In this document: in pieces, positions 12,113 to 45,449 of the stretch
How positions within the stretch are numbered: position 1 is the first letter of the stretch
How the letters are laid out: every line of letters starts with the position of its first letter
DNA from: Methanocellales archaeon
GTDB lineage: Archaea; Halobacteriota; JAWCLZ01
Assembly: GCA_038850285.1 (NCBI GenBank)
Contig: JAWCMA010000005.1
Coordinates: forward strand, 1-54,805
Reading direction: 5' to 3'
Length of the DNA stretch: 54,805 bases
Translations under genes and position numbers: made by a program
Notes under the pieces: model-generated
The model's database searches: none
Told to the model about the DNA's origin: nothing
The model's input: the letters and a program-made list of their open reading frames with translations, nothing else

Positions 12113-13741
12113 ATGGCTCAGCAACAAGCTGTGCAACCTATTTTAATCTTAAAGGAAGGGAGCCAGAGAACCAGAGGCAAAGAAGCGCAGAGCATGAATA
12201 TTCTCGCAGCAAGAGCAGTAGCAGCCGCTGTGCGAACTACACTGGGACCGAAAGGCATGGATAAAATGCTTGTGGATAGCTTAGGAGATGTAGTGATAAC
12301 CAACGATGGAGTAACCATTTTAAAGGAAATGGACATCGAACATCCAGCTGCAAAAATGATGGTAGAAGTCTCAAAGACGCAAGATCAAGAAGTCGGAGAT
12401 GGCACAACCACAGCTGTGGTAATAGCGGGAGAGCTACTAGGCAATGCTGAGAAATTAATTGACCAGAAGATCCATCCCACAGTTGTAGTATCAGGCTATA
12501 AGATAGCCGCGAAGAGAGCTGAGGAGGTATTGAAAAATATAGCAATTGATGTGGATATAGGCAATGAAAAGCTTTTGAGGCAAACCGCGCTCACTGCAAT
12601 AACTGGAAAGGGAGCTGAAACAGCTAAGGAGGAAATCTCAGAGATCTGCGTGCAAGCAGTCAAGGCAATTGTGGAAAATGGGAAGGCAGATATTGAAAAT
12701 ATACAGATACAGAAAATAGAGGGAGGCAGCACCACAGATTCAAAGCTTGTTCAAGGAGTGGTAATAGATAAAGAAGTGGTGCATCCCCACATGCCAAAGA
12801 GAGTAGAGAATGCAAAGATACTGCTCTTAGACGTAGCACTTGAATATAAGAAAACCGAAGTAGATGCAGAGATTTCAATAACATCTCCAGATCAATTAAA
12901 AGCATTCTTAGATGAAGAGGAACGCATATTGAAGAACATGGTTGATAAAATTGCAGCAACTGGTGCAAATGTAGTGCTCTGCCAGAAGGGCATAGATGAT
13001 ATAGCGCAGCATTACCTAGCAAAAGCAAACATCTTAGCAGCTAGAAGAATAAAGGAAAGCGACATGGAGAAACTAGCGAGAGCTACAGGAGCAACCATAG
13101 TCAAAAGCTTAGAGGGAGTATCTGCTAAAGACCTAGGCAGCGCTGGACTAGTTGAAGAACGCAAATATGGCGAGGATGAAATGATATTTGTGGAGCAATG
13201 CAAGAATCCAAAGGCAGTCACAATAATACTCCGAGGAGGCTCAGAGCACGTTGTAGATGAACTAGAAAGAGGAGTCAACGATGGCCTGCGCGTAGTTGAA
13301 GGAGCAATCGAAGATGGCAAGCTCGTGGCAGGGGGAGGAGCAGCTGAAGTTGAAGTAGCCCTTCGCCTGCGAGAGTATGCGGCAAGAGTAGGGGGAAGAG
13401 AGCAGCTTGCAATTGAGGCTTTCGCAGACGCTATTGAGGTTATTCCAAAGACACTTGCAGAGAACGCTGGCTTAGATCCAATTGACACCATCGTAGATCT
13501 AAGAGCGGAGCACGAGAAAGGCAATAAACACGCTGGACTCAATGTATACACAGGTAAAGTAATAGATATGTATAAAGAAGGCGTGGTCGAGCCATTAAGA
13601 GTAAAAACTCAAGCAATTCACTCAGCCTCAGAAGCTGCAACGATGATTCTGAGGATCGACGATGTAATTTCAGCGGGCAAGCTTGAGAAAGAAGAAAAGA
13701 AACCACCATCCAAGGGCGAGGAGTTCGAATCAGAATATTAA
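12113..13741 (+). CDS. ths: Thermosome subunit (group II chaperonin)
   Basis: [32 protein letters not shown]. Confidence 0.97.
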
Positions 13742-13793: not shown

Positions 13794-14363
13794 ATGGAGC
13801 TTGAGAAAGAGCCTGCATTGGAAAGAAATAAAGTAATGGAGGTAATGCAAACTCAAGAAGCAGAGCTAGCCAAGTTAAAAGTGGAGCTAGAGGAGAAAGC
13901 TAAAGAACTTGAGGAAAAAAAGAAAGAGCTTATGGAAAAAACTAAGCTTGCAGATGAATACTACATTCAGCTGCAGTATTTAAGGGCTGATATTGAGAAT
14001 TTGAAGAAATTTGCCGAAAAAGAAAAAATGGAATATATAAAATTTGCTAATGAAGAGCTGGTTAAAAAAATGCTGCCGGTATTAGATAGCTTTGAAAGTG
14101 CTTTAAAAATGAAATGTGAAAATAAAGGAATAATTGAAGGAATGGAGAAAATATATCGCCAGCTATATGAAATCCTCGAGAAAGAAGGACTTAAATTTAT
14201 TTCAGCAGTTGGCGAGAAATTCGATCCATTTAAACATGAAGCAGTAGCCCAAATTGAAAATAAAAATGCTGAGGAAAATACTATACTAGAGGAACTTCAA
14301 AAAGGATATACCTTTAATTCCAAGGTAATTCGCACATCTAAAGTTAAAGTCTCAAAGAGGTGA
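13794..14363 (+). CDS. grpE: Nucleotide exchange factor GrpE
   Basis: [29 protein letters not shown]; precedes dnaK. Confidence 0.95.
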
Positions 14364-14367
14364 GAAA

Positions 14368-16239
14368 ATGGCAAAGATAATTGGAATCGATTTAGGAACA
14401 AGTAATTCAGCTGCTGCAGTTATGATGGGAGGCAGACCAACTATAATTCCAAGCTCTGAGGGTATAACTCTAGGGGGTAAAGCCTTCCCAAGCTATGTTG
14501 GCTTCGCAAAAGATGGACAGATATTAATTGGCGAGCCCGCTAGAAGGCAAGCTGTAAGCAATCCCGAGGGCACTGTTACTGCATTTAAAAGAAAGATGGG
14601 CACGGATTATAAATATAGAATTCATGGCAAAGAATATACCCCTCAAGAGCTCTCTGCATTCTTACTTCGCAAGATAAAGCAAGACTCTGAAGCTTTTCTT
14701 GGGGAAAAAGTGGAGAAAGCAGTTATAACTGTGCCAGCTTATTTCAATGACAATCAGAGGCAGGCAACTAAAGACGCGGGTAGAATAGCCGGCTTAGAAG
14801 TGGTTCGAATAATCAATGAACCTACAGCAGCCAGCCTTGCCTATGGAATTGATAAAGCAGGTAAAGAACAGCGAATAATGGTCTTCGACCTAGGCGGCGG
14901 CACATTGGATGTCACCCTCCTGGAATTTGGAGGGGGGGTTTTTGAAGTAAAAGCCACTTCAGGGGATACTCAACTCGGCGGCACAGATATGGATAATGCC
15001 TTAATAGACTACATTGTTCGAGAATTCAAGCGCGATACAGGCATAGATTTAAGGAATGATAAAATGGCAATGATGCGCCTTAAAGAAGCCGCGGAGAAAG
15101 CCAAAATCGAGCTCTCAACCTCACTTACAACCGATATTAACTTGCCCTTCCTCACAGCGGATCAAACTGGACCTAAGCATCTCACGATGACCATTACTAG
15201 AGCAAAGCTCGAGGAATTAATAGCTCCCATAATAGATCGCTGCCGGGGGCCAATGAGGCAAGCTCTAGCTGATGCCAAGCTAGAGCCAAAGGATATAGAT
15301 AAAGTGATTCTAGTGGGGGGTCCAACGCGCATGCCAATTGTACAACGCTTCGTTGAGGAATTCATGGGCAAAAAAATAGAGCGAGGCATAGACCCAATGG
15401 AATGCGTTGCAATGGGAGCAGCTATCCAAGGGGGAGTACTCGCAGGGGAAGTTAAAGACCTAGTGCTATTAGATGTAACCCCTCTTTCACTTGGAGTTGA
15501 AACCCTAGGCGGGGTTTTCACTAAATTGATAGAGAGAAATACAACCATTCCAACTAGAAAGAGCCAGATCTTCACCACCGCTGCTGACAATCAAACAAGT
15601 GTAGAGATACATGTTCTACAGGGAGAGAGACCAATGGCAGCGGATAACACCACTCTCGGTCGCTTCCATTTAATAGGCATACCACCTGCTCCCCGCGGCA
15701 TTCCCCAGATCGAGGTTACCTTTGACATCGATGTAAATGGCATCCTCACAGTTTCAGCTAAAGATCTCGCAACTAGCAAGGAGCAAAGAATCACTATAAC
15801 TGCACCACATAGACTCTCGGAAGAGGAAATTCAGCGCAAGATCAAGGAAGCTGAGAAATATGCTGAGGAGGATAAAAAGAGAAGGGAAAAAGCAGAGCTT
15901 AAGAATCAAGCGGATTCATTGATTTATACCTCGGAGAAAACAATTAGAGAAGCCGGGGATAAAATAAGCAAAGAACTTAAGGATAAAGCAGCTCAAGCCA
16001 TTGAAAAACTCAAGGAAGCGGTGAAAAGCGAGGATGTAGCTAGAATAAAAGGGGAGATTGAGAATACAACTAAAGTACTACATGAAATTGCAACCCTAAT
16101 GTATCAGCAAACCGCGCCGCCAAAGGGGGAAGAAGCAAAAGCAAGGGGCGATCAAGCTAAAAGTGATCAAGCTAAAGGCGATCAAGCTAAAACAATGGAC
16201 GCTGATTATAAAGTGGTGGATGAGGATAAAGAGAAATAA
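14368..16239 (+). CDS. dnaK: Chaperone DnaK (Hsp70)
   Basis: [33 protein letters not shown]. Confidence 0.98.
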
Positions 16240-16244
16240 AAGCG

Positions 16245-17420
16245 GTGTTGGCATTGGAAAAAGAAAAGCGGGATTACTATGAAGTGCTAGGGGTTAATAG
16301 AAATGCCACTAAGGAAGAGATCAAGCAAGCTTATCGAAAACTCGCTATGCAGTATCACCCAGATGTAAGTAAAGATCCTAATGCTGAGGAAAAATTCAAG
16401 GAAATCTCTGAAGCCTATGCAGTGCTAAGTGACGATGAAAAGCGCGCTCAATATGACCGCTTTGGACACGCTGGAATGGCTGGATATACGCAGCAAGATC
16501 TATTCCGCGACTTCGACTTCGATATCTTCAGAGACTTCGGCTTTGGAAGCTTTGACTCCATTTTTGATATTTTCTTCGGCCGAGACTTCGGCTCACGTTT
16601 TCGACAAACCTATGAACAAGTATATCGCCCTAGGCGCGGGAATGATATTTTATATACCCTTGAGATAAGCTTGAATGAAGCTGCTTTTGGAGCTGAAAAG
16701 GAAATCGAGGTCCCAAAGCAAATCCCCTGCTCAGCTTGCGGGGGCACAGGTGCTAAACCTGGCACTGGTCCAAGGAAATGCCCAGCTTGCAATGGCACTG
16801 GTCAAGTTAGACATGCGCAAACCCGAGGCTTTACCCAATTCATAAGAATTGAAACCTGCAGCGCCTGCAGAGGACGCGGTACATATATCGAAGTGCCCTG
16901 CGGTGAATGCAGAGGTAAAGGAATTGTACAGAGAACTCGCAAGCTATCGATCAAAGTGCCCAAGGGAGTGGACACTAGTTATCGCCTGCGCATAAGAGGA
17001 GAGGGTGAAGCTGGAGAGAGTGGCGCTCCACCTGGAGATTTATATATCGAGGTTAAAGTCAAGCCCCACGCTTTCCTCGAGAGGGAGGGAGATGATTTAA
17101 TTTGCAAGATACCAATAAGTTATCCTCAAGCAGCACTTGGCTGCGAGATCGAGGTCCCCACTCTCTATGGAAAATCAAAGTTGAAAATACCCCCGGGCAC
17201 GCAGAATGATACTCTCTTTCGATTAAAGGGCAAGGGAATGCCTCGCTTGCAGGGATATGGAAATGGTGATCAAATTGTACGCATTTATATAACCATTCCA
17301 ACTAAATTGAACAAGCGGCAGAGAGAACTGCTGGAGGAACTAGCAAAGCTAGAGGAGCAGGAGAAAGAGAGGGAGAAGGAAAAAAGTTTTTTCTCAAGGA
17401 TATGGAAAGACGTGGAATAA
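16245..17420 (+). CDS. dnaJ: Chaperone DnaJ
   Basis: DYYEVLG, HPD, G/F region, four CxxCxGxG repeats. Confidence 0.97.
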
Positions 17421-24040: not shown

Positions 24041-24412
24041 ATGAATATGAAGCTTGGCGTTGAACTTCAGTTTGATGCAGCCCATAGTCTCCCTAGGTAT
24101 GAGGGCAAATGCAAGAACATCCACGGGCATACCTATACAGCTGAGGTTATAGTTAGCGGCAAGGTGGATGGTGAAACGCATTTTATTTTAGATTACTTCA
24201 TTCTTAAAAAACTACTTGGAGAAGTAATTGCAGAGCTTGACCATAGATATCTCAATGAGATCTTGGAGTATCCAACGAGCGAGAGAATTGCTCAATATAT
24301 CTATAGGAAGATGAGGGAAAAACTCAAGGGATACAATGTAGAGTTAATATCCATAAAGCTATGGGAGGGAAAAGATAAGTGGGTTAAAATTGAGAAGGGG
24401 GATGAGGATTAA
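24041..24412 (+). CDS. queD: 6-carboxy-5,6,7,8-tetrahydropterin synthase QueD
   Basis: FDAAH, CKNIHGH, LDHRYLN, PTSERIA, LWE. Confidence 0.93.
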   Translation: MNMKLGVELQFDAAHSLPRYEGKCKNIHGHTYTAEVIVSGKVDGETHFILDYFILKKLLGEVIAELDHRYLNEILEYPTSERIAQYIYRKMREKLKGYNVELISIKLWEGKDKWVKIEKGDED

Positions 24413-24977
24413 ATTGAAGGTGAAAATATTAAACAAGCGATTGAACTACGATGGCTCTCAGCTCCGAGCCCTTTGGGCACTTGAGGAATTGGGATTGCAG
24501 GGCAGCTCAATAGTGGTATTCAGAGGAGGGATGAATGTAGCTAGAGATCAAATGCGGGATTTAAAGGATAAAAGAGAATTGAGGGAGATAAAGGGGGAGA
24601 ATTTGATTCACTTCATAGTGGAAGTCATAGATCCAAGCGCTGATTTAAGACTTGCTTACTATGCTCAAAGATTGCTGCTCTGCATCGCTAAAGACAAACT
24701 AGAGGAATTCGGAGTGAAGGCAGCTAGAGAAGGCGGAGATTTATATTTCAATGGGAGAAAGCTCAGCGTTAGCATTGCAAATTCCAACTTAAATGGCTAT
24801 AAAATCCATTTAGGTATAAATATCACCTCAAAACAAGCCCCAGAAGGAGCAATTGGCTTGAGGGAAATCCATAAGAAAATAAAGGCAATGGAAATTGCTA
24901 GATCGATTGCGAAGCAATTCGCAATAGAATGCGAGGATATAGAGCGAGATATTGCAAAGACAAGGGCATTTGGATGA
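24390..24977 (+). CDS. DUF366-family protein
   Basis: YDGSQL, FRGGMNV, HFIVE, GGDLY..RKLSVSIA, HLGINI; lies between queD and queC. Confidence 0.8.
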   Translation: MRRGMRIKLKVKILNKRLNYDGSQLRALWALEELGLQGSSIVVFRGGMNVARDQMRDLKDKRELREIKGENLIHFIVEVIDPSADLRLAYYAQRLLLCIAKDKLEEFGVKAAREGGDLYFNGRKLSVSIANSNLNGYKIHLGINITSKQAPEGAIGLREIHKKIKAMEIARSIAKQFAIECEDIERDIAKTRAFG

Positions 24978-25039
24978 AAACTTTATGAAAACTTTATGAA
25001 GGCTTTATGAAAACTTTATGAAAACTTTATGAAGGCATT
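24974..25039 (+). repeat. Six tandem 11-bp units (ATGAAAACTTT / ATGAAGGCTTT); the last one is the queC start
   Basis: Units begin at 24974, 24985, 24996, 25007, 25018 and 25029; pattern AAB-AAB'. Confidence 0.95.
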
Positions 25040-25718
25040 TGTATTGCTTTCCTCGGGTCTTGATTCTACAGTTGCATTTAAAAAAGCATTGGATGAATTT
25101 GAGGAAGTGAGATGCCTCACCTTTGACTACGGTCAAAAAGCAAGACTGCGTGAATTGGAATATTCAAAGAAAATTTGCTCGCTATTTAAAGTAAAGCATA
25201 GCATAATAAAGCTGCCTTGGCTAGCTAAATTCAAGGGAAGTTTAACTCAAAGTAATAAACTGCCTGAACTAAAGGAAGAAGACCTTGATATAGAGGCGAA
25301 GATAAAAGAATCCTCAGCTCAAGTCTGGGTACCGGCTAGAAACACTGTTTTCTTGAGCATAGCAGCTAGCTATTGTGAAAATTTTGAATTCAATGCAATT
25401 GTAGCAGGCTTCGACGCAGAGGAAGCTGCGAGTTTTTCAGATAATTCCGCGCAGTTTATATCCAGCTTCAACGCCATGCTTAAATATGGGGTTAGAAGAC
25501 ATATAGAGGTCATTGCACCTTTAATAGAGATGAATAAAGCGGAAATCGCTGCTTTAGGGATAGAAATAAAAGCTCCCCTGGAGTGGTCTTGGTCTTGTTA
25601 TACTTCGAATAAGTTTCCCTGCGGTAAATGTGAATCATGCGCTAGGAGAAAACGAGCTTTTAAAGCCATTGGGAAAAAAGACCCTCTATTAATAAGACTT
25701 GGAGTGGAGAAACCGTGA
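25029..25718 (+). CDS. queC: 7-cyano-7-deazaguanine synthase QueC
   Basis: LSSGLDS PP-loop, FDYGQ, VPARN, SCY..PCGKCESC. Confidence 0.95.
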   Translation: MKAFVLLSSGLDSTVAFKKALDEFEEVRCLTFDYGQKARLRELEYSKKICSLFKVKHSIIKLPWLAKFKGSLTQSNKLPELKEEDLDIEAKIKESSAQVWVPARNTVFLSIAASYCENFEFNAIVAGFDAEEAASFSDNSAQFISSFNAMLKYGVRRHIEVIAPLIEMNKAEIAALGIEIKAPLEWSWSCYTSNKFPCGKCESCARRKRAFKAIGKKDPLLIRLGVEKP

Positions 25719-26470
25719 ACTTGAACTTGAACTTGAAGGTTACATTTCACTCTGAAAATCAAAGGATATATGGAAATCTGCATATACCCGCTGAAAAAGA
25801 AAAACCCCCTGGTGTTCTCCTGCTCCACGGGCTTGAAAGCAGTAAAGATAGCGGTAAATGGCCAAGTATGGCAAGCAGGCTATGCAGCGAAGGCTATGCT
25901 TGCTTGAGATTTAGCTTCAGGGGCTGTGGAGAGGGAATGGAGAAAAGCGAGGGGGAGTTTGAAGAGGTAACCCTCACAGCTAGAATTAATGACTATCTAG
26001 CTGCTTTGCACTTCTTGCAGGCAATAGATAAAGTGGATATAAATAGACTAGGGGTAATTGGCTCGAGTTTTGGTGGAATGACTGCGATTGCTGCTCAAGC
26101 TATGGGAATAAAAGCCTTGGTAACCATGGGCACGCCTTATAAAATACCTCGCTTTGAAGAACCTCGAATTCCAAAGAAGATAGGGGAATACTATGTGCTT
26201 CCCTCGGGGAGGAGGTTTAAAAAGAACTTCTATGAGGATCTTAAAAAATATGACCTTTTACTAGCAATTAAAAGTGCTCCTCCTATTTTAATATTACACG
26301 GCAGCTTGGATGAAGTAGTTCCACTGGAGCACGCTTACAAGCTCTATGAAGCTGCACTTGAGCCTAAGAAACTCGTAATAGTGGAAGGCGCAGACCATGT
26401 TTTCTCAAAGCATTTAAATAGAGCGATTGATTTGAGCTTGGAATGGTTTGAAAAATACCTAATGCAATAA
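25715..26470 (+). CDS. Alpha/beta-fold hydrolase
   Basis: LLHG, GSSFG nucleophile elbow, HGSLD, GADH. Confidence 0.88.
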   Translation: MNLNLNLKVTFHSENQRIYGNLHIPAEKEKPPGVLLLHGLESSKDSGKWPSMASRLCSEGYACLRFSFRGCGEGMEKSEGEFEEVTLTARINDYLAALHFLQAIDKVDINRLGVIGSSFGGMTAIAAQAMGIKALVTMGTPYKIPRFEEPRIPKKIGEYYVLPSGRRFKKNFYEDLKKYDLLLAIKSAPPILILHGSLDEVVPLEHAYKLYEAALEPKKLVIVEGADHVFSKHLNRAIDLSLEWFEKYLMQ

Positions 26471-27075: not shown

Positions 27076-27633
27076 TTAACCCCCCTCCATCCTTCTCATA
27101 TAGCTATCTTTAACTCCTGCCCTCTCAAGTTCTAAGAGAATCTCTCCCTCGTTCCCCCCTCTTTTAATTATATGTTTAATGGTCTCAGAGATTTCCCAGG
27201 GGAAGACAACCCAAGCACTGGTTTCAACGCCATAGAGATCAGGTATAACTTTTGACCTAGGCTTTTTCACAATAGTAACTGTTAAAATCTCTCCAGCTTG
27301 GTTCTCCCTCAAATGACTTTGAGCTAGCTCCAAGCTCTCTCCCGTGTCAGCGATATCATCAACGAGTAAAACTCTCCTGCCCCTTAAATTTAAAGGCAGG
27401 GGATAAACTATCATCGGCTTCTTAGCTCTTTCATCGATAGAGGTATAGAATTTTATTCTCATTGTGAATAGCTCATCTATATCAAGTAAATCTGAGAGAA
27501 TGCGAGCAGGCACCCAGCCCCCTCTAGCTATGCCAACTATAACCTCTGGCTTAAAACCTCTTTGCTTTATCCTTCTATAGAGAACTTCACAATGCCTCTC
27601 AATATCCTCCCAAGTCAGCCTTAAGTATTCCAT
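27076..27633 (-). CDS. Purine-type phosphoribosyltransferase
   Basis: LTWEDI, GIARGG, LLVDDIADTGES, WVVFPWE. Start moved to ATG 27633 to avoid overlap with queE. Confidence 0.88.
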   Translation of the reverse strand: MEYLRLTWEDIERHCEVLYRRIKQRGFKPEVIVGIARGGWVPARILSDLLDIDELFTMRIKFYTSIDERAKKPMIVYPLPLNLRGRRVLLVDDIADTGESLELAQSHLRENQAGEILTVTIVKKPRSKVIPDLYGVETSAWVVFPWEISETIKHIIKRGGNEGEILLELERAGVKDSYMRRMEGG

Positions 27634-27700
27634 TGCGAATTCGAATAAGAGGGCAAAGTACTTTATTTTATCGCTTGTAAATAAAAATCGTGAAGCTAGA

Positions 27701-28462
27701 ATGAAGCAAGAAAAAGCCATTATTCGAGAGATATTTAATAGCATACAGGGAGAAGGCATATATCTTGGGACTAGACAGGTATTCGTGCGCTTCCAAGGCT
27801 GCCCCCTGCGCTGCAGCTACTGCGATTCAATTGAAACTTGGAACTATGAGCTTGAGAGCTGTAGAGTTGAAAAAACACCTGGAGCTAGAGATTTCTATAA
27901 TGTTAGCAATCCTCTAAATGTAAATGAGCTTGAGAGGATAGTTAAAAAACTCTGGCTGCCTAGTACAAAGCACCTCAGTTTAACAGGTGGCGAGCCCCTG
28001 CTCTATGCAAGCTATATAGCAGAACTTAGCTCCAACCTAGATAAAAAACTCTACTTGGAAACAAATTCCGCCCTACCAGCTCAAGCTGAGCAAATTAAGC
28101 ATTGCATAGACATTGCCTCCTGCGATATAAAACTGCTTGAGCACGGCAATTTCGATGATTATGACCAGCTTTTGAAAGATGAACTTGAAACTCTAAGGAT
28201 CTTTTACAAAGCCAAGGTAGATTTATTTGCAAAAATCGTGATTTTAGCGGAAACAACACCAGCGAGTTTATCCCCTGCAATAGAAGGCATAGCTCGAATT
28301 TCAAAGGGAATTCCACTTGTGCTACAGCCTGTAACTCCCACTAGAAAAATAAAAGCCAAGCCCGCGCCTATGAAACTACTTGAACTCATGGAGTATGCAG
28401 GGAGAAAACTTTTAGATGTAAGAGTGATCCCTCAAGCTCATAAAATCACAGGCTTTCTTTAG
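27701..28462 (+). CDS. queE: 7-carboxy-7-deazaguanine synthase QueE (radical SAM)
   Basis: EIFNSIQGEG, FVRFQGCPLRCSYCD, LTGGEPL, LETN, LQP, PQAHK. Confidence 0.93.
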   Translation: MKQEKAIIREIFNSIQGEGIYLGTRQVFVRFQGCPLRCSYCDSIETWNYELESCRVEKTPGARDFYNVSNPLNVNELERIVKKLWLPSTKHLSLTGGEPLLYASYIAELSSNLDKKLYLETNSALPAQAEQIKHCIDIASCDIKLLEHGNFDDYDQLLKDELETLRIFYKAKVDLFAKIVILAETTPASLSPAIEGIARISKGIPLVLQPVTPTRKIKAKPAPMKLLELMEYAGRKLLDVRVIPQAHKITGFL

Positions 28463-38316: not shown

Positions 38317-38685
38317 TTGGCAATTGAAGATTTGATTAGGCTCTCGGTAGAGAAGTTATCGGAAATGGTAACGAGCGAGACAGTTGTTGGTAAAGAAATC
38401 AAAGTGGGAGATAAGTCAATAATCCCTCTGGTCAAAGTCTGCTTTGGTTTTGGAGGAGGCGGTGGGGAAGGAGAAGCTCCAGAAAAGACAGCAATTAAGA
38501 AAGGATTTGGAGGAGGTAGTGGAGCAGGTGCAACGATAGAGCCGGTAGCCCTCCTTCTAATAGATGGTGAAAAAATAGGTCTGCTACGCGTAGGCGCCAT
38601 CCCAGGTACTCTTGAAAAACTGATCGAAATGGTTCCAATGGTGATTGAGAAAATCAGAGTACCTCGAGAAGAAAAGGAAAAATAG
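38317..38685 (+). CDS. GerW/YtfJ-family protein
   Basis: ETVVGKEI..IIPLVKVCFGFGGGGG ... GGGSGAGATIEPVA. Confidence 0.88.
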   Translation: MAIEDLIRLSVEKLSEMVTSETVVGKEIKVGDKSIIPLVKVCFGFGGGGGEGEAPEKTAIKKGFGGGSGAGATIEPVALLLIDGEKIGLLRVGAIPGTLEKLIEMVPMVIEKIRVPREEKEK

Positions 38686-38731
38686 TCCTAATAATAGAAT
38701 CAGGGAATCAGGTTGATCAAGAGTGATTTAA

Positions 38732-39319
38732 TTGATGCAGCTACTGCTTTTTTTGTTTATTATTTTTATTTTTGCAATAATTCTATTCCTCATTCTATTT
38801 CTCCCCATCGATTTAGATTTTGAGATAATCTCCACGCCTAAGAAGAAGGAAAGGAAATACTTTATTAGCTGGCATATATTTCGAAGACAAATATCAATAG
38901 CGAAAAAAGAATCTAACGTGGAAAGGAAATTTGAATTCAAATTAGAGTATTTAGAATTCATGGGGCCAATCTTTGGCTTTATTCAAGAAGCCAAAAGGTC
39001 ACTTGTTATTAAAGACTTTACACTTTCAATATATTTTGGCACGTCAAATCCAGCATATACAGGAATGATTTTTGGCTACCTAAGCGCCTTACAATATGCT
39101 GCTATGGAAATGTTTCCTAAAATTTCATTCAATATCTCCTCAGACTTCTCAAAAGAAAGATTTGATTATTATTCAAAAGGAAGCATATCTCTAAAGCCAT
39201 ACCTCTTGCTTTCTGCCTTAATTAAATTCATGCTTAGAAAACCAATTCGCACGCTAATAAAAAATGAAATCTCAAGAAAATTGACCATCCATAGAAAAAC
39301 TATTTCACTAGGAACATAA
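38732..39319 (+). CDS. DUF2953 / YtfI-like membrane-anchored protein
   Basis: N-terminal TM anchor, FGTSNPAYTGMIFG motif, usual partner of YtfJ. Confidence 0.72.
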   Translation: MMQLLLFLFIIFIFAIILFLILFLPIDLDFEIISTPKKKERKYFISWHIFRRQISIAKKESNVERKFEFKLEYLEFMGPIFGFIQEAKRSLVIKDFTLSIYFGTSNPAYTGMIFGYLSALQYAAMEMFPKISFNISSDFSKERFDYYSKGSISLKPYLLLSALIKFMLRKPIRTLIKNEISRKLTIHRKTISLGT

Positions 39320-41083: not shown

Positions 41084-42205
41084 TTAACTTTTCCCAACTT
41101 CACCGCAATAGGCACTTGCTATTTCCCTCTTGAATTCTAAAAATTCCCCATTTAAGATTGCCTTCCTAGCTTGGGATAGTAATTCTTGCAGGAAGAAGAG
41201 GTTGTGCATGGTTACAAGCCGCATGCCAAGCATCTCATGCACCTTCAATAGATGGTGGATGTATGCTCGAGTGTAGCTCTTGCAAGCAAAGCAGTTGCAT
41301 TTTCTATCGATGGGTGAAAAATCCCTCGCATATCTCCCTCTCCTCAAGCTAAATCGCCCTTTATTGGTATAAACGGTGCTGTGTCTAGCATTCCTAGTGG
41401 GATAAACACTGTCAAATAAATCTATGCCCATGGAAATGGAGTTCAAAAGATCAAGGGGAGCGCCAACTCCCATAAGATATCTAATTTTTTCCTCTGGAAT
41501 TAAGGGTACTGTATAGCTAAGTACTTCATACATTACTTTCTTCGGCTCGCCAATGCAAAGCCCGCCAATTGCATAGCCTTGGAAATCCATTGCACTCAAT
41601 GCACAAGCGCACTCCCTTCTTAAATCGGGATAAGTACCGCCTTGTATTATGCAGAATAGGACTTGATCTTCTCTTCGATGTGCTTCTTTGGTAATTTTTG
41701 CCCATTCAATTGTGCGCTGAGTAGACTTTTTCACGTATTCATAATCACTTCCATAGGGCGGGCAGTCATCGAGTACCATTGCCGCGTCTGATCCAAGTTC
41801 CATTTGCACCTCTATGCATTTAAGAGGTGTAAATCTATGCTTAGTGCTATCAAAAGGACTTTGGAAAACAGCGCCTTTATTGCTTACCTGCAGTAATAGT
41901 TTATCATTGAGCATTTGAAATCCACCGCTATCAGTGAATATCGCTCCTTTGAAATTCATGAATCCATGAATCCCCCCTGCCTCTTTTATAACCTTCACCC
42001 CTGGCTTTAGATATAAAATGAAGGCATTGGAAATGATTGCTTGAACATTGATTGCATACAATTCCTCGGAGCTAAGTGTTTTAACACTCGCCTTAGTGGC
42101 AACTGGCATGAATGCAGGGGTATCCACTATTCCATGCTTGGTATGCAGTCTGCCTACTCGTGCAGCGGTTTTTTCATCTTTACCCAGCAATTCAAACATC
42201 TTCAT
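41084..42205 (-). CDS. tgt: tRNA-guanine transglycosylase, bacterial (preQ1, position 34) type
   Basis: TPAFMPV, TDSGGFQ, LDDCP, IQGG, GGLCIGE, YLMGVG, FDSVYPTRNAR, CxCxxC...H zinc site; 373 aa with no C-terminal PUA domain. Confidence 0.92.
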   Translation of the reverse strand: MKMFELLGKDEKTAARVGRLHTKHGIVDTPAFMPVATKASVKTLSSEELYAINVQAIISNAFILYLKPGVKVIKEAGGIHGFMNFKGAIFTDSGGFQMLNDKLLLQVSNKGAVFQSPFDSTKHRFTPLKCIEVQMELGSDAAMVLDDCPPYGSDYEYVKKSTQRTIEWAKITKEAHRREDQVLFCIIQGGTYPDLRRECACALSAMDFQGYAIGGLCIGEPKKVMYEVLSYTVPLIPEEKIRYLMGVGAPLDLLNSISMGIDLFDSVYPTRNARHSTVYTNKGRFSLRRGRYARDFSPIDRKCNCFACKSYTRAYIHHLLKVHEMLGMRLVTMHNLFFLQELLSQARKAILNGEFLEFKREIASAYCGEVGKS

Positions 42206-42207
42206 CC

Positions 42208-43203
42208 CTATTTCAAAATCAACATTGCATCTCCAAAGCTATAAAAGCGATAGCGCTGTGCTATTGCTTGTTCATAAGCCCTTAAAATCTTCTCTCTCCC
42301 AGCATAAGCGCAGACTAGCATAAGCAGCGTGGAACGGGGTAGATGGAAGTTGGTTATCAATGCATCGATTTTGGCTTTGAATTCATAGCCTGGATATATG
42401 AATAAATCTGTTAATCCCTCGAAGGGTTGAATTTTCCCATTTATGCAAGCGCTCTCAAGTGCTTTAACTACAGAGGTGCCCACTGCAACTATCTTTCCTT
42501 TAGCACTATTCAATATATTCGCAGTTTCCTCTTGAACTCTGCAGTATTCCCCTTCCATTTTATGCTGCTCGATACTCCTAACTGGCATAAACGTGCTTAT
42601 TCCAATATGCAGCGTGATAAAGACAACATTAACCCCCATTAACTCCAACTCTTTGAGAAGTTCAGCAGTGAAGTGAAGCCCCGCGGTGGTTGAAGCTAGA
42701 GAGCCATTTATCCTTCCATAAATAGTTTGATATCGCTCTTTATCACTGAGCTCTTTTTTAATATAAGGCGGGATTGGTAAAGAGCCAATTTTAGCCAGCA
42801 ATTCTTGTGATACCTCGCGATTGAATTTAACTATAAATCTCCCAAGTCCAAGATCCGCTATTACTCTGCCTTCCAGTTCTTTGAAAATTAGTTTTTTTCC
42901 AGGCTGTAAATTTCTTCCTTTAATAAAGCATTCCCAAGCATCCTCAACCTTTTTTATGAGTAAAAGTTCTACTTTTCCACCTGTGGTTTTTCTACCTTCA
43001 ATTTTAGCTGGTATAACTCGAGAGTCATTCAATACAAGTATGTCTCCACTTCTAAGGTATTCTACTATGTCCGAGAACCTGCGATGTGCAATTTCCTGGC
43101 TCTTGCAATTTAGAACTAAAAGTTGGGAAGCACTTCTGGGTTCAACTGGGGTTTGTGCAATTAAGGCTTTTGGAAGTGGATAATCAAAATCCTCAAGCTT
43201 CAT
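42208..43203 (-). CDS. queA: S-adenosylmethionine:tRNA ribosyltransferase-isomerase
   Basis: FDYPLP..LIAQ, NDSRVIPA, PPYI, YQTIY, TAGLHF, TNFHLPRSTLLMLV, YRFYSFGDAMLI. Confidence 0.95.
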   Translation of the reverse strand: MKLEDFDYPLPKALIAQTPVEPRSASQLLVLNCKSQEIAHRRFSDIVEYLRSGDILVLNDSRVIPAKIEGRKTTGGKVELLLIKKVEDAWECFIKGRNLQPGKKLIFKELEGRVIADLGLGRFIVKFNREVSQELLAKIGSLPIPPYIKKELSDKERYQTIYGRINGSLASTTAGLHFTAELLKELELMGVNVVFITLHIGISTFMPVRSIEQHKMEGEYCRVQEETANILNSAKGKIVAVGTSVVKALESACINGKIQPFEGLTDLFIYPGYEFKAKIDALITNFHLPRSTLLMLVCAYAGREKILRAYEQAIAQRYRFYSFGDAMLILK

Positions 43204-43257
43204 TATAATTGAGATATGCATAATATCTTAATATACCTTAACCCAGATTAATTTAAG

Positions 43258-44202
43258 ATGATTGGCATAACTGCTCTCATTCCCCCTGAGGTAATATATG
43301 CCTGCGGCGAGCGCGCTTTAGATCTTAATAACTTCGTACCGCATTCAAAGTTGAATCCTCGAGATAAACTTTGTGCGTGGACTGCTATTTGGCGTGATTT
43401 AGTGTTAAGCGGTGAGGTGAAAATCGATGCTTTAGTGGTAATCGCAGGGGGTGACTGCAACAATGCCATAGTAGATGGAGAGAAGCTTGAGCTAGCTGGA
43501 ATTAGAACTCTATATTTAATGTATCCTTTCGATGGTTCAAAGAGGCTTATGCGCATGCAAATTGAAAAGCTGCTGAATTTCCTAGGCGGGATTAAGGATA
43601 GAAGTGTATTTAAGAAAATCAACAAGCTTAAGAAGCAGGCCATGAGGCTTGATGAACTTCGAGTTAGAGGTAGAGCAGCAGCTAAAGATGTATTTCAAAT
43701 TGAGATTTCCAGCAGCGATTTAATAGGTGATTTGGAGAAATATGAAGAGGCATTAAATAGAGTGGTTGAGCAAAAATTGAATTATAAATATCGCATTGCT
43801 TTACTGGGAACCCCGCCGATTTATCCTGATTTCCATGATTATCTGCAATCAATTGGCTTGCACGTGGTATATGATGAAATGCCATATGAATTCATTCGCC
43901 TTGAGGGTAAAAATTTAGAGGAGATAGCTGCTAACTATAGAAACTATACTTTCGCTAGGAATATAAAATTCAGATTGAAATTCATTGAGAATGAAATTAG
44001 AAGAAGGGAAGTTCAAGCTATTATTCATTTTCAACAATTTGCTTGCCACCACAAGCTTGAGGATCCAATTTTAAGGCAATATTTCAATAAAGAACTAGGC
44101 ATTCCCTATATCACCATAGAAGCTGATCTGCCTGGCAAAATACCCGAGCAGGTAAAGCTCAGGCTTGATGCATTTGCAGAGCGCCTTGGAGGGAGGCTGT
44201 AA
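43258..44202 (+). CDS. 2-hydroxyacyl-CoA dehydratase / benzoyl-CoA reductase-like Fe-S subunit (stand-alone)
   Basis: PPEVIYA, three Cys motifs LCAW / GGDC / QFAC, C-terminal IPYITIEAD...RLDAFAE typical of the HgdA/HgdB family. Confidence 0.78.
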   Translation: MIGITALIPPEVIYACGERALDLNNFVPHSKLNPRDKLCAWTAIWRDLVLSGEVKIDALVVIAGGDCNNAIVDGEKLELAGIRTLYLMYPFDGSKRLMRMQIEKLLNFLGGIKDRSVFKKINKLKKQAMRLDELRVRGRAAAKDVFQIEISSSDLIGDLEKYEEALNRVVEQKLNYKYRIALLGTPPIYPDFHDYLQSIGLHVVYDEMPYEFIRLEGKNLEEIAANYRNYTFARNIKFRLKFIENEIRRREVQAIIHFQQFACHHKLEDPILRQYFNKELGIPYITIEADLPGKIPEQVKLRLDAFAERLGGRL

Positions 44203-44922
44203 TTGCTCATAGGCATTGACATTGGAAGTATAAGTGCCAAGGGAATATATTACTCCAATGGCACTTATACTTGGCAAGTGGTTGATACTCATAATTGGAG
44301 GGAGTTGCTTGCTGAGAGAAAAAAGGAAGATATCGTGATTGCAACTGGATATTTCAGGAAAAAAGTGCCTTGTGATGAAACTGTGACTGAAATAACCTCT
44401 GCTATCTATGGAGTGAAACATTTTCTTAAAAAAGAAATCGAGGTCATCGTTGACATAGGGGGGCAGGATATTAAAGTAATAGATCTACGGAGCAATGACT
44501 TTAGAATGAATGATAAATGCTCAGCTGGGACAGGTGCTTTTCTCGAACTAGTTGCTAGATATTTTGATTTAAAGGTTGAGGAGCTTGAGAAATATCATTT
44601 CAAGGCGGAGAAATATGCTGAGATTAATAGCACTTGCTCGGTTTTCGCGCTCTCTGAAATTGTTTCAAAACTTGTTGAGGGGTTCTCCAGAGAAGAGATT
44701 ATTAAAGGAGTTCACTTTGCCTTTGCAAATAGAATTGCCCAACTCATACCAATCGACGCGAAGAAAATAGCTTTGATAGGTGGCATAGTTAAAAATCGAG
44801 GAGTAGTGGATGCTCTTGAAAGAGTTTTGAATAAAAATGTACATGTGCCTAGTGAACCGCAAATTGTAAATGCGATTGGAGCAGTTGAATATTATCTTTA
44901 TCTAGCTAAAGATATTTCTTAA
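44203..44922 (+). CDS. ATP-dependent Fe-S activator (HgdC/BadF-BadG ASKHA family)
   Basis: GIDIGS, ATGY, DIGGQD, MNDKCSAGTG, NSTCSVFA. Confidence 0.9.
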   Translation: MLIGIDIGSISAKGIYYSNGTYTWQVVDTHNWRELLAERKKEDIVIATGYFRKKVPCDETVTEITSAIYGVKHFLKKEIEVIVDIGGQDIKVIDLRSNDFRMNDKCSAGTGAFLELVARYFDLKVEELEKYHFKAEKYAEINSTCSVFALSEIVSKLVEGFSREEIIKGVHFAFANRIAQLIPIDAKKIALIGGIVKNRGVVDALERVLNKNVHVPSEPQIVNAIGAVEYYLYLAKDIS

Positions 44923-45295
44923 TTCTCGCTTCAAGCAGCTCTCTTGATAGTGCTCCAGTTACTCGATCTATCAATTTTCCATTTTTGAAGAATAACAGCG
45001 TGGGAATAGCATTGATTCCAAATTTCAAAGCTGTATTGATATTTTCATCGGTATTTAATTTGCCGAACAACACTCTTCCCTCATAGTTTCTAGCTAGATC
45101 TTCTATTACAGGTGCAAGCATTCTACAGGGCATGCACCAAGGTGCCCAGAAGTCAACTATTATGAATGGATATTGCTCTATAACTGCTGAAAAGTTCTCA
45201 TCCGATATTTCTATTACTCCTAGGGGGTTTTTTTTAGATAATTTCTCAATCAATTCCTTCATTTTCTTGGCTTTTATTTCTTCGATTTCACTCAT
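44906..45295 (-). CDS. trxA: Thioredoxin
   Basis: VDFWAPWCMPC, IPT. Confidence 0.93.
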   Translation of the reverse strand: MSEIEEIKAKKMKELIEKLSKKNPLGVIEISDENFSAVIEQYPFIIVDFWAPWCMPCRMLAPVIEDLARNYEGRVLFGKLNTDENINTALKFGINAIPTLLFFKNGKLIDRVTGALSRELLEARIKKYL

Positions 45296-45449
45296 CTGAA
45301 TCATCTGAATCCTTATAATTTATTTTCTATTTAATTTTAATTTATCCTCTACTATAAATTTTTGCACGATTTTGGCAAAAATGAATATATAACTAATCGA
45401 AATGCTTTTTATTAGATGGCATAAATATCTTTGAAAGGAGGAGTTTGAA

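Follow-up and report, generated by a model that had tools for sequence, protein, structure and literature searches.

The archaeal DNA analyzed here, a stretch of 54,805 nucleotides (positions 1 to 54,805 of contig JAWCMA010000005.1, Methanocellales archaeon assembly GCA_038850285.1) to which we refer as the window, carries at positions 43258-44922 a pair of adjacent genes encoding a lone protein of the HGD-D family (PF06050; hereafter HGDD) and an HgdC-type ATP-dependent activase. Based on comparative evidence, the pair is quite probably a two-component, ATP-dependent Fe-S reductase that converts preQ0 to preQ1 and serves as a non-orthologous replacement of QueF. We also think it likely that the pair represents an unrecognized family of ATP-driven, low-potential [4Fe-4S] nitrile reductases within the HgdAB/BCR/DCCP superfamily, making preQ1 from preQ0. 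Displacement of QueF is the simplest reading because the other steps of the queuosine pathway are encoded, the pair is tied to que genes in two domains of life through two different sets of neighbors, and its distribution complements that of QueF. An earlier interpretation made from the letters of the window alone (the sequence-only reading) had favored the same replacement, and had named gene linkage, phyletic profile and mutual exclusion with queF as the places to look for support; linkage proved recurrent, co-occurrence with queA near-perfect, and exclusion of QueF near-complete (0 of 104 carrier genomes).

Queuosine genes of the Methanocellales genome

Genes for preQ0 supply (queD, queC and queE), together with tgt and queA, are located in the window by family matches (Table 1), as the sequence-only reading had reported. 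That reading had also found both reductive enzymes of the pathway missing from the window. This is accurate for QueG and QueH within the window, but the assembly (1.28 Mb in 39 contigs, 93.3% complete) encodes QueH twice, on contig C33 (G000:C33:830-1333, 196.8 bits) and on contig C1 (G000:C1:139337-139843, 196.1 bits). For QueF the absence extends to the genome, in which, at 93.3% completeness, PF14489, TIGR03138 and TIGR03139 gave no match. Since queD, queE, queC, tgt, queA and two QueH are present and QueF is not found, QueF is the only gap in the pathway. QueA needs the aminomethyl group of preQ1, and preQ1 is required because QueA acts on this amine. Both QueH (DUF208) genes are full-length and nearly equal in score, with one such gene in most of the carrier archaea.

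The pair adjoins queA, whose product is epoxyqueuosine, and QueG is represented in the genome only by a match to its ferredoxin part (63 bits against a cut-off of 200). Both observations would suit an epoxyqueuosine reductase (oQ to Q) of a third type, in place of QueG or QueH, which was the second option of the sequence-only reading. With two QueH in the genome, the last reductive step is covered and that option fails; QueH is also present in 44 of the 50 archaeal carrier genomes searched (see below), and the operon context of the bacterial homologues is preQ0 synthesis, not the tRNA-level steps. Replacement of QueG/QueH was rejected on these grounds, and we give an epoxyqueuosine reductase next to no credence.

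DUF366, which the sequence-only reading had considered as a possible partner of the pair, was rejected in this role: the family is also found in M. jannaschii and M. acetivorans, control methanogens without queA, and in none of the 80 bacterial loci described below. The family is probably connected with preQ0/archaeosine synthesis in archaea rather than being queuosine-specific. A second gene of the TGT family, on contig C39, is 26% identical to the tgt of the window and probably encodes the archaeosine enzyme, in which case preQ0 would feed two pathways. Genome-wide, there is one PF06050 (HGD-D) gene and one activase gene, and thus no hidden partner subunit; the lack of a second subunit noted in the sequence-only reading holds for the entire 1.28 Mb. 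Co-localized genes for QueA, a QueH-like protein and Tgt were described in 34 genomes of archaea, among them DPANN and some Methanosarcinales (Castelle et al. 2021, PMC8204110). The window is another example of this arrangement; the main text of that study does not address QueF or the origin of preQ1.

Gene linkage and phyletic distribution in Archaea and Bacteria

The HGDD protein has 146 database relatives, and every named one is archaeal; Methanosarcina barkeri has a homologue at 50% identity. We took 73 archaeal homologue loci from species-representative genomes and compared them with the window proteins by tblastn. The activase gene adjoins the HGDD gene in 59 of these loci, and in each of five Thermoplasmata genomes without an adjacent activase, activases are found elsewhere in the genome. 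Immediately beside the HGDD gene, 12 of the 73 loci have queA and/or tgt; they comprise two relatives at 90% identity (metagenome-assembled genomes [MAGs] labelled Methanocellales), four Thermoplasmata, five ANME-2/Methanocomedens/Methanosarcinales and one Methanobacteriota MAG, with identities of 50-57% for the last ten. The head-to-head arrangement of queA and HGDD recurs in L006, L007, L018-L024, L034 and L075, and in L077 the two genes are ~2.6 kb apart. A single locus (L014, from Hydrothermarchaeota) has queC-DUF366-queE-queD 2 kb upstream of the HGDD gene, a neighborhood that thus recurs outside the window.

Genome-wide searches covered 50 of the 72 archaeal carrier genomes (those left out are mostly further Methanoperedens). 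queA scores above the cut-off in 46 of them and QueF in none, with two matches of ~21.7 bits. An even sample of 301 genomes from the phylum of the Methanocellales archaeon contains the HGDD protein (E ≤1e-10) in six genomes and queA in exactly those six; the other 295 have neither. These six carriers represent about three lineages and not six independent events. Among six further queA-positive archaea, found through QueA, the three without an HGDD relative that do have QueF score 112, 76 and 116 bits, while another has no QueF and carries a bacterial-type HGDD relative 5.6 kb from queA. Archaeal QueA proteins (L089-L160) are closest to the QueA of Chloroflexota (Anaerolineae) and Bacillota. 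In a record named ‘uncultured delta proteobacterium’ (G372, locus L169), a CetZ-type tubulin gene adjoins the HGDD homologue, and this 1.3-Mb genome may be archaeal.

A bacterial sister clade with ~30% identity and the same three cysteines is found in Clostridia, Halanaerobiales and Fusobacteria. Its first members (31-32% identity) came from four QueF-less genomes labelled bacterial. In Fuchsiella alkaliacetigena, the HGD-D gene heads an operon of HGD-D, activase, queC, queD and queE. While the single Fuchsiella protein as query gave four loci, the family alignment retrieved 80, from many Clostridium species, Tepidibacter, Peptoclostridium, Oceanirhabdus, Vallitalea, Caloramator, Halanaerobiales, Fusobacteriaceae (Ilyobacter, Psychrilyobacter), Geomonas and Ammonifex, among others. 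The activase adjoins HGDD in 76 of the 80 loci; at least one of queC, queD and queE follows immediately, in the same orientation, in 54, and all three do so in 46. The commonest order is HGDD-activase-queD-queE-folE-queC, where folE occupies a 600-bp gap, so that the bacterial unit consists of the whole preQ0 pathway plus the HGDD-activase pair. Neither tgt, queA nor DUF366 occurs in any of the 80 loci. By tblastn, the queE of the window is connected with its counterparts in L014 and in the bacterial operons.

No QueF above the cut-off was found in a set of four bacterial carriers or in 50 of the 80 that were picked by hand for a genome-wide search before any results were seen; queA is present in four of four and 49 of 50, respectively. 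Weak PF14489 matches (21-26 bits) in open reading frames (ORFs) of 188-218 amino acids, one of them 1.5 kb from queC, are probably FolE, likewise of the T-fold. Among five more distant bacterial carriers without que neighbors, four still have QueC.

The complementarity with QueF is most apparent in a sample from the class of Clostridium lundense (Clostridia; 200 scored genomes, with QueC counted in 201). The HGDD protein (E ≤1e-50) is present in 12 of these genomes, QueF above the cut-off in 16, and QueC in 18 of 201. Of the 18 QueC-positive genomes, nine have only the HGDD protein, eight have only QueF, one has both and none has neither; every preQ0-capable genome in the sample therefore has one of the two candidate reductases. 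This split bears on another role for the pair in 7-deazaguanine metabolism, such as supplying low-potential electrons to QueE or QueH, or making or recycling a different deazaguanine intermediate. Activases are electron injectors by nature, and linkage to que genes with preQ1-type regulation would fit any role in the pathway. Such a role would, however, leave both the QueF-complementary split in Clostridia and the lack of QueF in all 104 carriers unexplained, and the preQ0-to-preQ1 step unfilled in the queA-positive carriers (95 of 100), and organisms with QueF run QueE and QueH without such a pair. We consider it quite unlikely.

In bacteria, the pair is often preceded by a leader element that resembles a PreQ1 riboswitch. 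A permissive Rfam scan gave full-model (1-45) matches to PreQ1 (RF00522) in three of five bacterial loci (L180:5875-5921, L185:5870-5916, L189:5860-5906), on the coding strand ~90 nt upstream of HGDD, with scores of 24.2-26.3 bits (E = 0.008 in a targeted 401-nt scan); at the gathering threshold, no PreQ1 riboswitch was reported in any of 11 scanned bacterial loci. The sequence of the element hardly differs between genera, in both Clostridia and Fusobacteria. A descriptor search placed it ≤400 nt upstream of HGDD in 40 of the 80 loci, with only two matches elsewhere in 953 kb (both strands), and a regular expression detected it in 45, in each case on the coding strand. These 45 are divided between 41 of the 54 que-linked loci and four of the 26 loci in which the pair has no que neighbor. 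Where the pair and queD-queE-folE-queC are 2 kb apart (L201, L221), each unit has its own copy. Judging from its sequence and placement, the element may work like, or be a variant of, the PreQ1-I riboswitch family that is missed by routine annotation.

This context also bears on whether the substrate is the free base. The same chemistry could take place on tRNA, with Tgt inserting preQ0 at position 34 and the pair reducing preQ0-tRNA to preQ1-tRNA before QueA acts. Bacterial Tgt accepts preQ0 in vitro, and the archaeal pair is linked to tgt-queA in 12 of the 73 loci as compared with queC/D/E in one. The bacterial pair, on the other hand, resides in a base-level operon (folE, queD, queE, queC; 54 of 80 loci) with tgt or queA in none, and behind an element resembling a free-base riboswitch. 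Furthermore, the 314-amino-acid protein has no recognizable RNA-binding domain; Pfam finds HGD-D only. Reduction at the level of tRNA is thus unlikely in our view, and the free base is favored over tRNA-bound preQ0 as the substrate, based on the bacterial operon and the riboswitch-like element.

Several observations weigh against assigning the pair to preQ0 reduction. There are no que genes in the fetched flanks of 60 of the 73 archaeal loci, including most Methanoperedens and Hydrothermarchaeota loci, or of 26 of the 80 bacterial loci. Two of the 12 Clostridia carriers lack QueC (seven QueF-carrying Clostridia genomes also lack it). Two of the six further queA-positive archaea have neither QueF nor the HGDD protein, and the same is true of 11 among 20 bacteria with queA, most of them Chloroflexota; there are thus other ways to do without QueF, e.g., preQ1 salvage. 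One Clostridia genome (G579; loci L260 and L261) has an intact HGDD-activase-queC-queD-queE operon plus a divergent, stand-alone QueF-like gene (145 amino acids, 66.8 bits) beside an SMR transporter gene. The PreQ1 matches are 13-15 bits below the Rfam gathering score (39 bits) and do not qualify formally as RF00522, the stem of the element is invariant and so gives no covariation support, and the element is found in none of the archaeal loci, nor in the window. MAGs make up many of the sampled genomes, and related genomes do not count as independent samples. A very negative potential should be required to reduce a conjugated nitrile by one electron when covalent catalysis is not used, which would rationalize the use of ATP; QueF reduces a nitrile without ATP, so this energetic rationale is one that we infer. 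Lastly, the Desulfosporosinus pair sits by genes for methylaspartate ammonia-lyase and citrate lyase (glutamate fermentation), and in a Thermodesulfobacteriota MAG, HGDD comes after a classical dehydratase of two subunits, with which it shares the activase.

Two of these cases merit separate description. An intact HGDD operon and a QueF-like gene were seen together in G579 only. The gene row of the Thermodesulfobacteriota MAG (L258:3043-7997) comprises the classical HGD-D pair, one activase, a Que-type HGDD and the RNA 3'-phosphate cyclase RtcA, an order that suggests a shared activase. For the Chloroflexota with neither QueF nor HGDD, either preQ1 salvage or yet another route would apply.

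The Desulfosporosinus and Thermodesulfobacteriota contexts, which lack que genes, would suit an ordinary 2-hydroxyacyl-CoA dehydratase-type enzyme, or a DCCP-like small-molecule enzyme, whose proximity to que genes is coincidental, and public annotations name every member of the family ‘2-hydroxyacyl-CoA dehydratase’. Yet the Methanocellales genome has a single subunit gene, and its surroundings lack the genes of such a context: the Pfam matches of the 56 scanned window ORFs include no CoA-transferase or acyl-CoA gene, as the sequence-only reading had said of the vicinity, and the same 56 annotated ORFs include no 2-hydroxyacid dehydrogenase or amino-acid fermentation context. The family is also discrete, with 168 of the 172 profile-matching ORFs in the fetched loci scoring ≥250 bits; the remaining matches are a truncated member (L073, 225 bits) and three paralogues (22-44 bits). 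Finally, chance cannot give two sets of que neighbors in two domains together with near-perfect queA co-occurrence. A coincidental association is very improbable, and reduction of preQ0 remains the reading that we prefer.

Protein features and proposed mechanism

The HGDD protein belongs to the HGD-D/FldB-C superfamily (PF06050, IPR010327) by both its sequence score and its two-domain Rossmann-like fold. An AF2 model (pLDDT 96.1) has HadC, MbdN, DCCP and BzdN as fold neighbors at TM 0.76-0.80; the individual matches are HadC 3O3N_B (E 1.5e-14, TM 0.76), BzdN 8S02_B (TM 0.80), MbdN 9GAI_B and DCCP (TM 0.80). Remote matches of the family profile to solved structures give a similar picture (DCCP 7YYL/6ENO, E about 1e-13; HadC 3O3M_B, 8e-13; BzdN, 4e-5). 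Among 1.84 billion representatives, 144 clusters match the family profile at E ≤1e-30. Of 18 long family representatives, 15 are HGDD-activase fusions and none is a fusion to a que domain. Two fusions, P0317 (968 amino acids) and P0289 (826 amino acids), have N-terminal extensions of ~360 and ~160 residues, respectively, with no Pfam match.

Four cysteines are present in the protein (16, 39, 67 and 263). In an alignment of 31 homologues (23 archaeal-type and 8 bacterial-type), C39, C67 and C263, unlike C16, are invariant. The other invariant residues are D22, N24 and N25 (forming a D-x-N-N motif), W41, D66, N69, D154, E207, F212, Y227, Y230, R239, H257 and Q260. By our own count from the alignment and the motif spacing, the invariant cysteines align with the third, fourth and seventh cysteines of the DCCP motif, and the D-x-N-N motif falls in the loop where DCCP has its extra cysteines. 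A double cubane needs the seven-cysteine motif CX19CX18-19CX29CX166-170CX32-34CX32C, six residues of which ligate the [8Fe-9S] cluster, whereas the dehydratase and BCR subunits have [4Fe-4S] clusters held by three cysteines, in which a unique iron serves, in HadB, as the substrate-binding site (accessible text of PMC7317905). Given only three invariant cysteines, each subunit is expected from the sequence to carry a single [4Fe-4S] cluster in which one iron is left open, rather than a double cubane. A double-cubane cofactor was rejected on the cysteine count and on the score against the NCBIfam double_cubane model (35.9 bits, with a cut-off of 350), and the likeness to double-cubane proteins drawn in the sequence-only reading does not extend to this cofactor.

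Modelling supports a homodimer of the HGDD protein. The predicted complex has an ipSAE of 0.81 (0.00 for the best of three controls), with runs agreeing in ≥97% of contacts and partner pLDDT ≥93, and its symmetric interface patch includes residues flanking all three invariant cysteines. In calibration, this mark was reached by 20 of 30 same-chain pairs of known structure and by one single chain out of 23, a comparison that holds roughly since our own alignment was used. Because DCCP and HadBC dimers have been solved, the result may reflect likeness to these structures. The activase belongs to the HgdC-type family and has C106 in the context DKCSAGTG and C145 in STCSVFA, which we take, from HgdC, to be the cluster ligands.

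By analogy with HadBC, BCR and DCCP, from which we infer the reaction, the cluster type, the binding of substrate and the ATP stoichiometry, the pair could work as follows. An activase homodimer bridged by a [4Fe-4S] cluster would accept an electron from ferredoxin or flavodoxin, bring it to a very low potential through ATP hydrolysis, and pass it to the [4Fe-4S] cluster of the HGD-D-type homodimer. This second cluster would be held by Cys39, Cys67 and Cys263 only, leaving one iron open to bind the nitrile nitrogen of preQ0, much as the thioester carbonyl is bound in 2-hydroxyacyl-CoA dehydratases, while the deazaguanine would be held by the invariant residues D22, N24, N25, W41, D66, N69, D154, E207, Y227, Y230, R239, H257 and Q260. 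Four successive electron/proton steps would take the nitrile to the imine and then to the amine. The bacterial-type Tgt would insert the resulting preQ1 in tRNA, QueA would add the epoxycyclopentanediol, and QueH would complete queuosine.

Organization of the locus, significance and relation to known systems

The coordinates and gene calls of the pair given in the sequence-only reading agree with Pfam and NCBIfam scores and with the sequence itself (Table 1), including the junction of the two genes: the TAA stop of HGDD (44200-44202) is followed without a gap by the TTG start of the activase at 44203, with GGAGG just upstream. Judging from this junction, the activase is translationally coupled to the HGDD gene. 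The pair is head-to-head with queA-tgt on the opposite strand. The 54-bp spacer described earlier stands if queA starts at Met-7 (position 43203), where the queA family models begin aligning, and not if it starts at the first ATG.

Table 1. Queuosine-related genes of the window, the HGDD-activase pair and the spacer between the pair and queA.
Feature	Position	Strand	Details
HGD-D-family protein (HGDD), candidate catalytic subunit of an Fe-S preQ0 reductase	43258-44202	+	314 aa; PF06050 93.8 bits (cut-off 28.4)
HgdC-type ATP-dependent activase (‘archerase’)	44203-44922	+	239 aa; TIGR00241 178.2 bits (cut-off 125.4); PF01869 (BcrAD_BadFG) 117.1 bits
queA (tRNA preQ1(34) S-adenosylmethionine ribosyltransferase-isomerase)	42208-43221	-	NF001140 410.2 bits; PF02547 400.6 bits
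tgt (tRNA guanosine(34) transglycosylase), bacterial-type	41084-42205	-	TIGR00430 460.2 bits (cut-off 306.75)
queA/HGDD divergent spacer	43204-43257		AT-rich; 54 bp from queA Met-7 start; 36 bp from first ATG at 43221
queD (6-carboxytetrahydropterin synthase), preQ0 supply	24041-24409	+	PF01242 117.6 bits
DUF366, between queD and queC	24390-24974	+	PF04017 205 bits; overlaps the end of queD
queC (preQ0 synthase)	25029-25715	+	PF06508 201.6 bits
queE-like radical SAM (7-carboxy-7-deazaguanine synthase)	27701-28459	+	Radical_SAM and Fer4_12 matches

The window has an archaeal signature (Orc1/Cdc6, thermosome, topoisomerase VI, archaeal riboflavin synthase). Directly after the thermosome gene (12113-13738), this small archaeal genome has a bacterial-type GrpE-DnaK-DnaJ operon (13794-17417). 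An alpha/beta hydrolase gene (25715-26467) and a gene with a phosphoribosyltransferase domain (27076-27756) lie between queC and queE, the latter ORF overlapping the start of queE from the opposite strand. Homologues of the sporulation-associated YtfJ (PF09579) and DUF2953 adjoin at 38317-39319, just upstream of a cysS-tgt-queA block. A thioredoxin gene (44906-45304) converges on the activase, whose 3' end it overlaps by 17 nt, an arrangement kept only in the three closest relatives (L006-L008).

To our knowledge, no enzyme besides QueF is credited with reducing nitriles to amines. The QueF reaction has been called biologically unique (PMC7317782, accessible text). If the assignment is correct, the pair would be a second biological nitrile reductase, mechanistically unrelated to the first, and of interest to both tRNA-modification biology and biocatalysis. 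It would be the first member of its superfamily with a nucleobase substrate and the first system of a lone subunit plus activase to be given a physiological substrate, as DCCP and YjiM are still without known substrates. It would also fill the missing step of the bacterial-type queuosine pathway in archaea, explaining queuosine in those that acquired tgt-queA-queH (Methanoperedens, ANME-2, Thermoplasmata, Hydrothermarchaeota and the Methanocellales lineage studied here), and explain de novo queuosine in strict anaerobes that lack QueF (many Clostridia, Halanaerobiales, Fusobacteria and Geomonas); in the Clostridia sample, 9 of the 18 QueC-positive genomes would rely on the pair instead of QueF. 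The label ‘2-hydroxyacyl-CoA dehydratase’ may be wrong for more than 5,000 database proteins. ‘Maker versus user’ schemes based on QueF, such as that in the accessible text of PMC11130926 (2024, queuosine salvage), would call these Clostridia, Fusobacteria and archaea non-producers. A literature search, which left most subscription journals and supplements outside its reach, found nothing linking HGD-D/activase proteins to preQ0 reduction, nor is there such a link in the accessible text of PMC11130926 or of PMC13329287 (2026, QueC family).

Of the known systems, DCCP with its reductase DCCP-R (PDB 6ENO, 7YYL) is the best PDB sequence match of HGDD (E 7e-14) and shares with it the organization as a lone HGD-D-type subunit that has its own activase. 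DCCP is a homodimer, as predicted for HGDD, and net ATP-driven reduction, predicted for HGDD, is known for DCCP, which reduces acetylene (PMC7317905, accessible text). The cofactor sets them apart: six residues of the seven-cysteine motif of DCCP ligate [8Fe-9S], while HGDD has three invariant cysteines and is ~100 residues shorter.

The 2-hydroxyacyl-CoA dehydratases (HgdAB/HadBC/FldBC with HgdC/HadI) share the HGDD fold and the type of ATP-dependent activase (TIGR00241). The three-cysteine [4Fe-4S] cluster of HgdAB/HadBC, with its substrate-binding iron in HadB (PMC7317905, accessible text), may have a counterpart at the exactly three invariant cysteines of HGDD. These dehydratases are heterodimers of paralogous subunits that act on CoA thioesters in a redox-neutral dehydration, with the electron recycled. 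In contrast, the pair has one subunit gene, no CoA context, and a predicted net four-electron reduction of a nucleobase; only one locus (L258) has a classical HGD-D pair as a neighbor. The class I BCRs (BcrABCD, BzdNOPQ, MbdONPQ) are also matched in fold, and in them stoichiometric ATP hydrolysis drives low-potential reduction, as predicted here. Each has four subunits, of which two are HGD-D-type and two are ATPase subunits that differ from each other, and aromatic CoA thioesters are reduced by two electrons. Their clusters are [4Fe-4S]-OH2 plus [8Fe-9S] (PMC11971306). The pair has one gene of each type and scores 96, 89 and 60 bits against BCR equivalogs with cut-offs of 380, 578 and 313 bits, placing it outside this class.

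QueF (PF14489, T-fold) has no sequence or fold relation to HGDD, which falls outside the QueF sequence family as a protein of an unrelated fold and would be its analogue in function only. QueF works through a covalent cysteine thioimide and two NADPH, is NADPH-dependent, and uses no metal cluster and no ATP; for the pair, Fe-S clusters, ATP and electrons of low potential are predicted, and all carriers seen are from anaerobic lineages. In B. subtilis, the queCDEF operon is under a preQ1 riboswitch. The predicted reaction (four-electron reduction of the nitrile, preQ0 to preQ1) and its position in the pathway are the same for both enzymes, which are nearly mutually exclusive in genomes, and in que operons the pair has a position equivalent to that of QueF, downstream of a PreQ1-like element.

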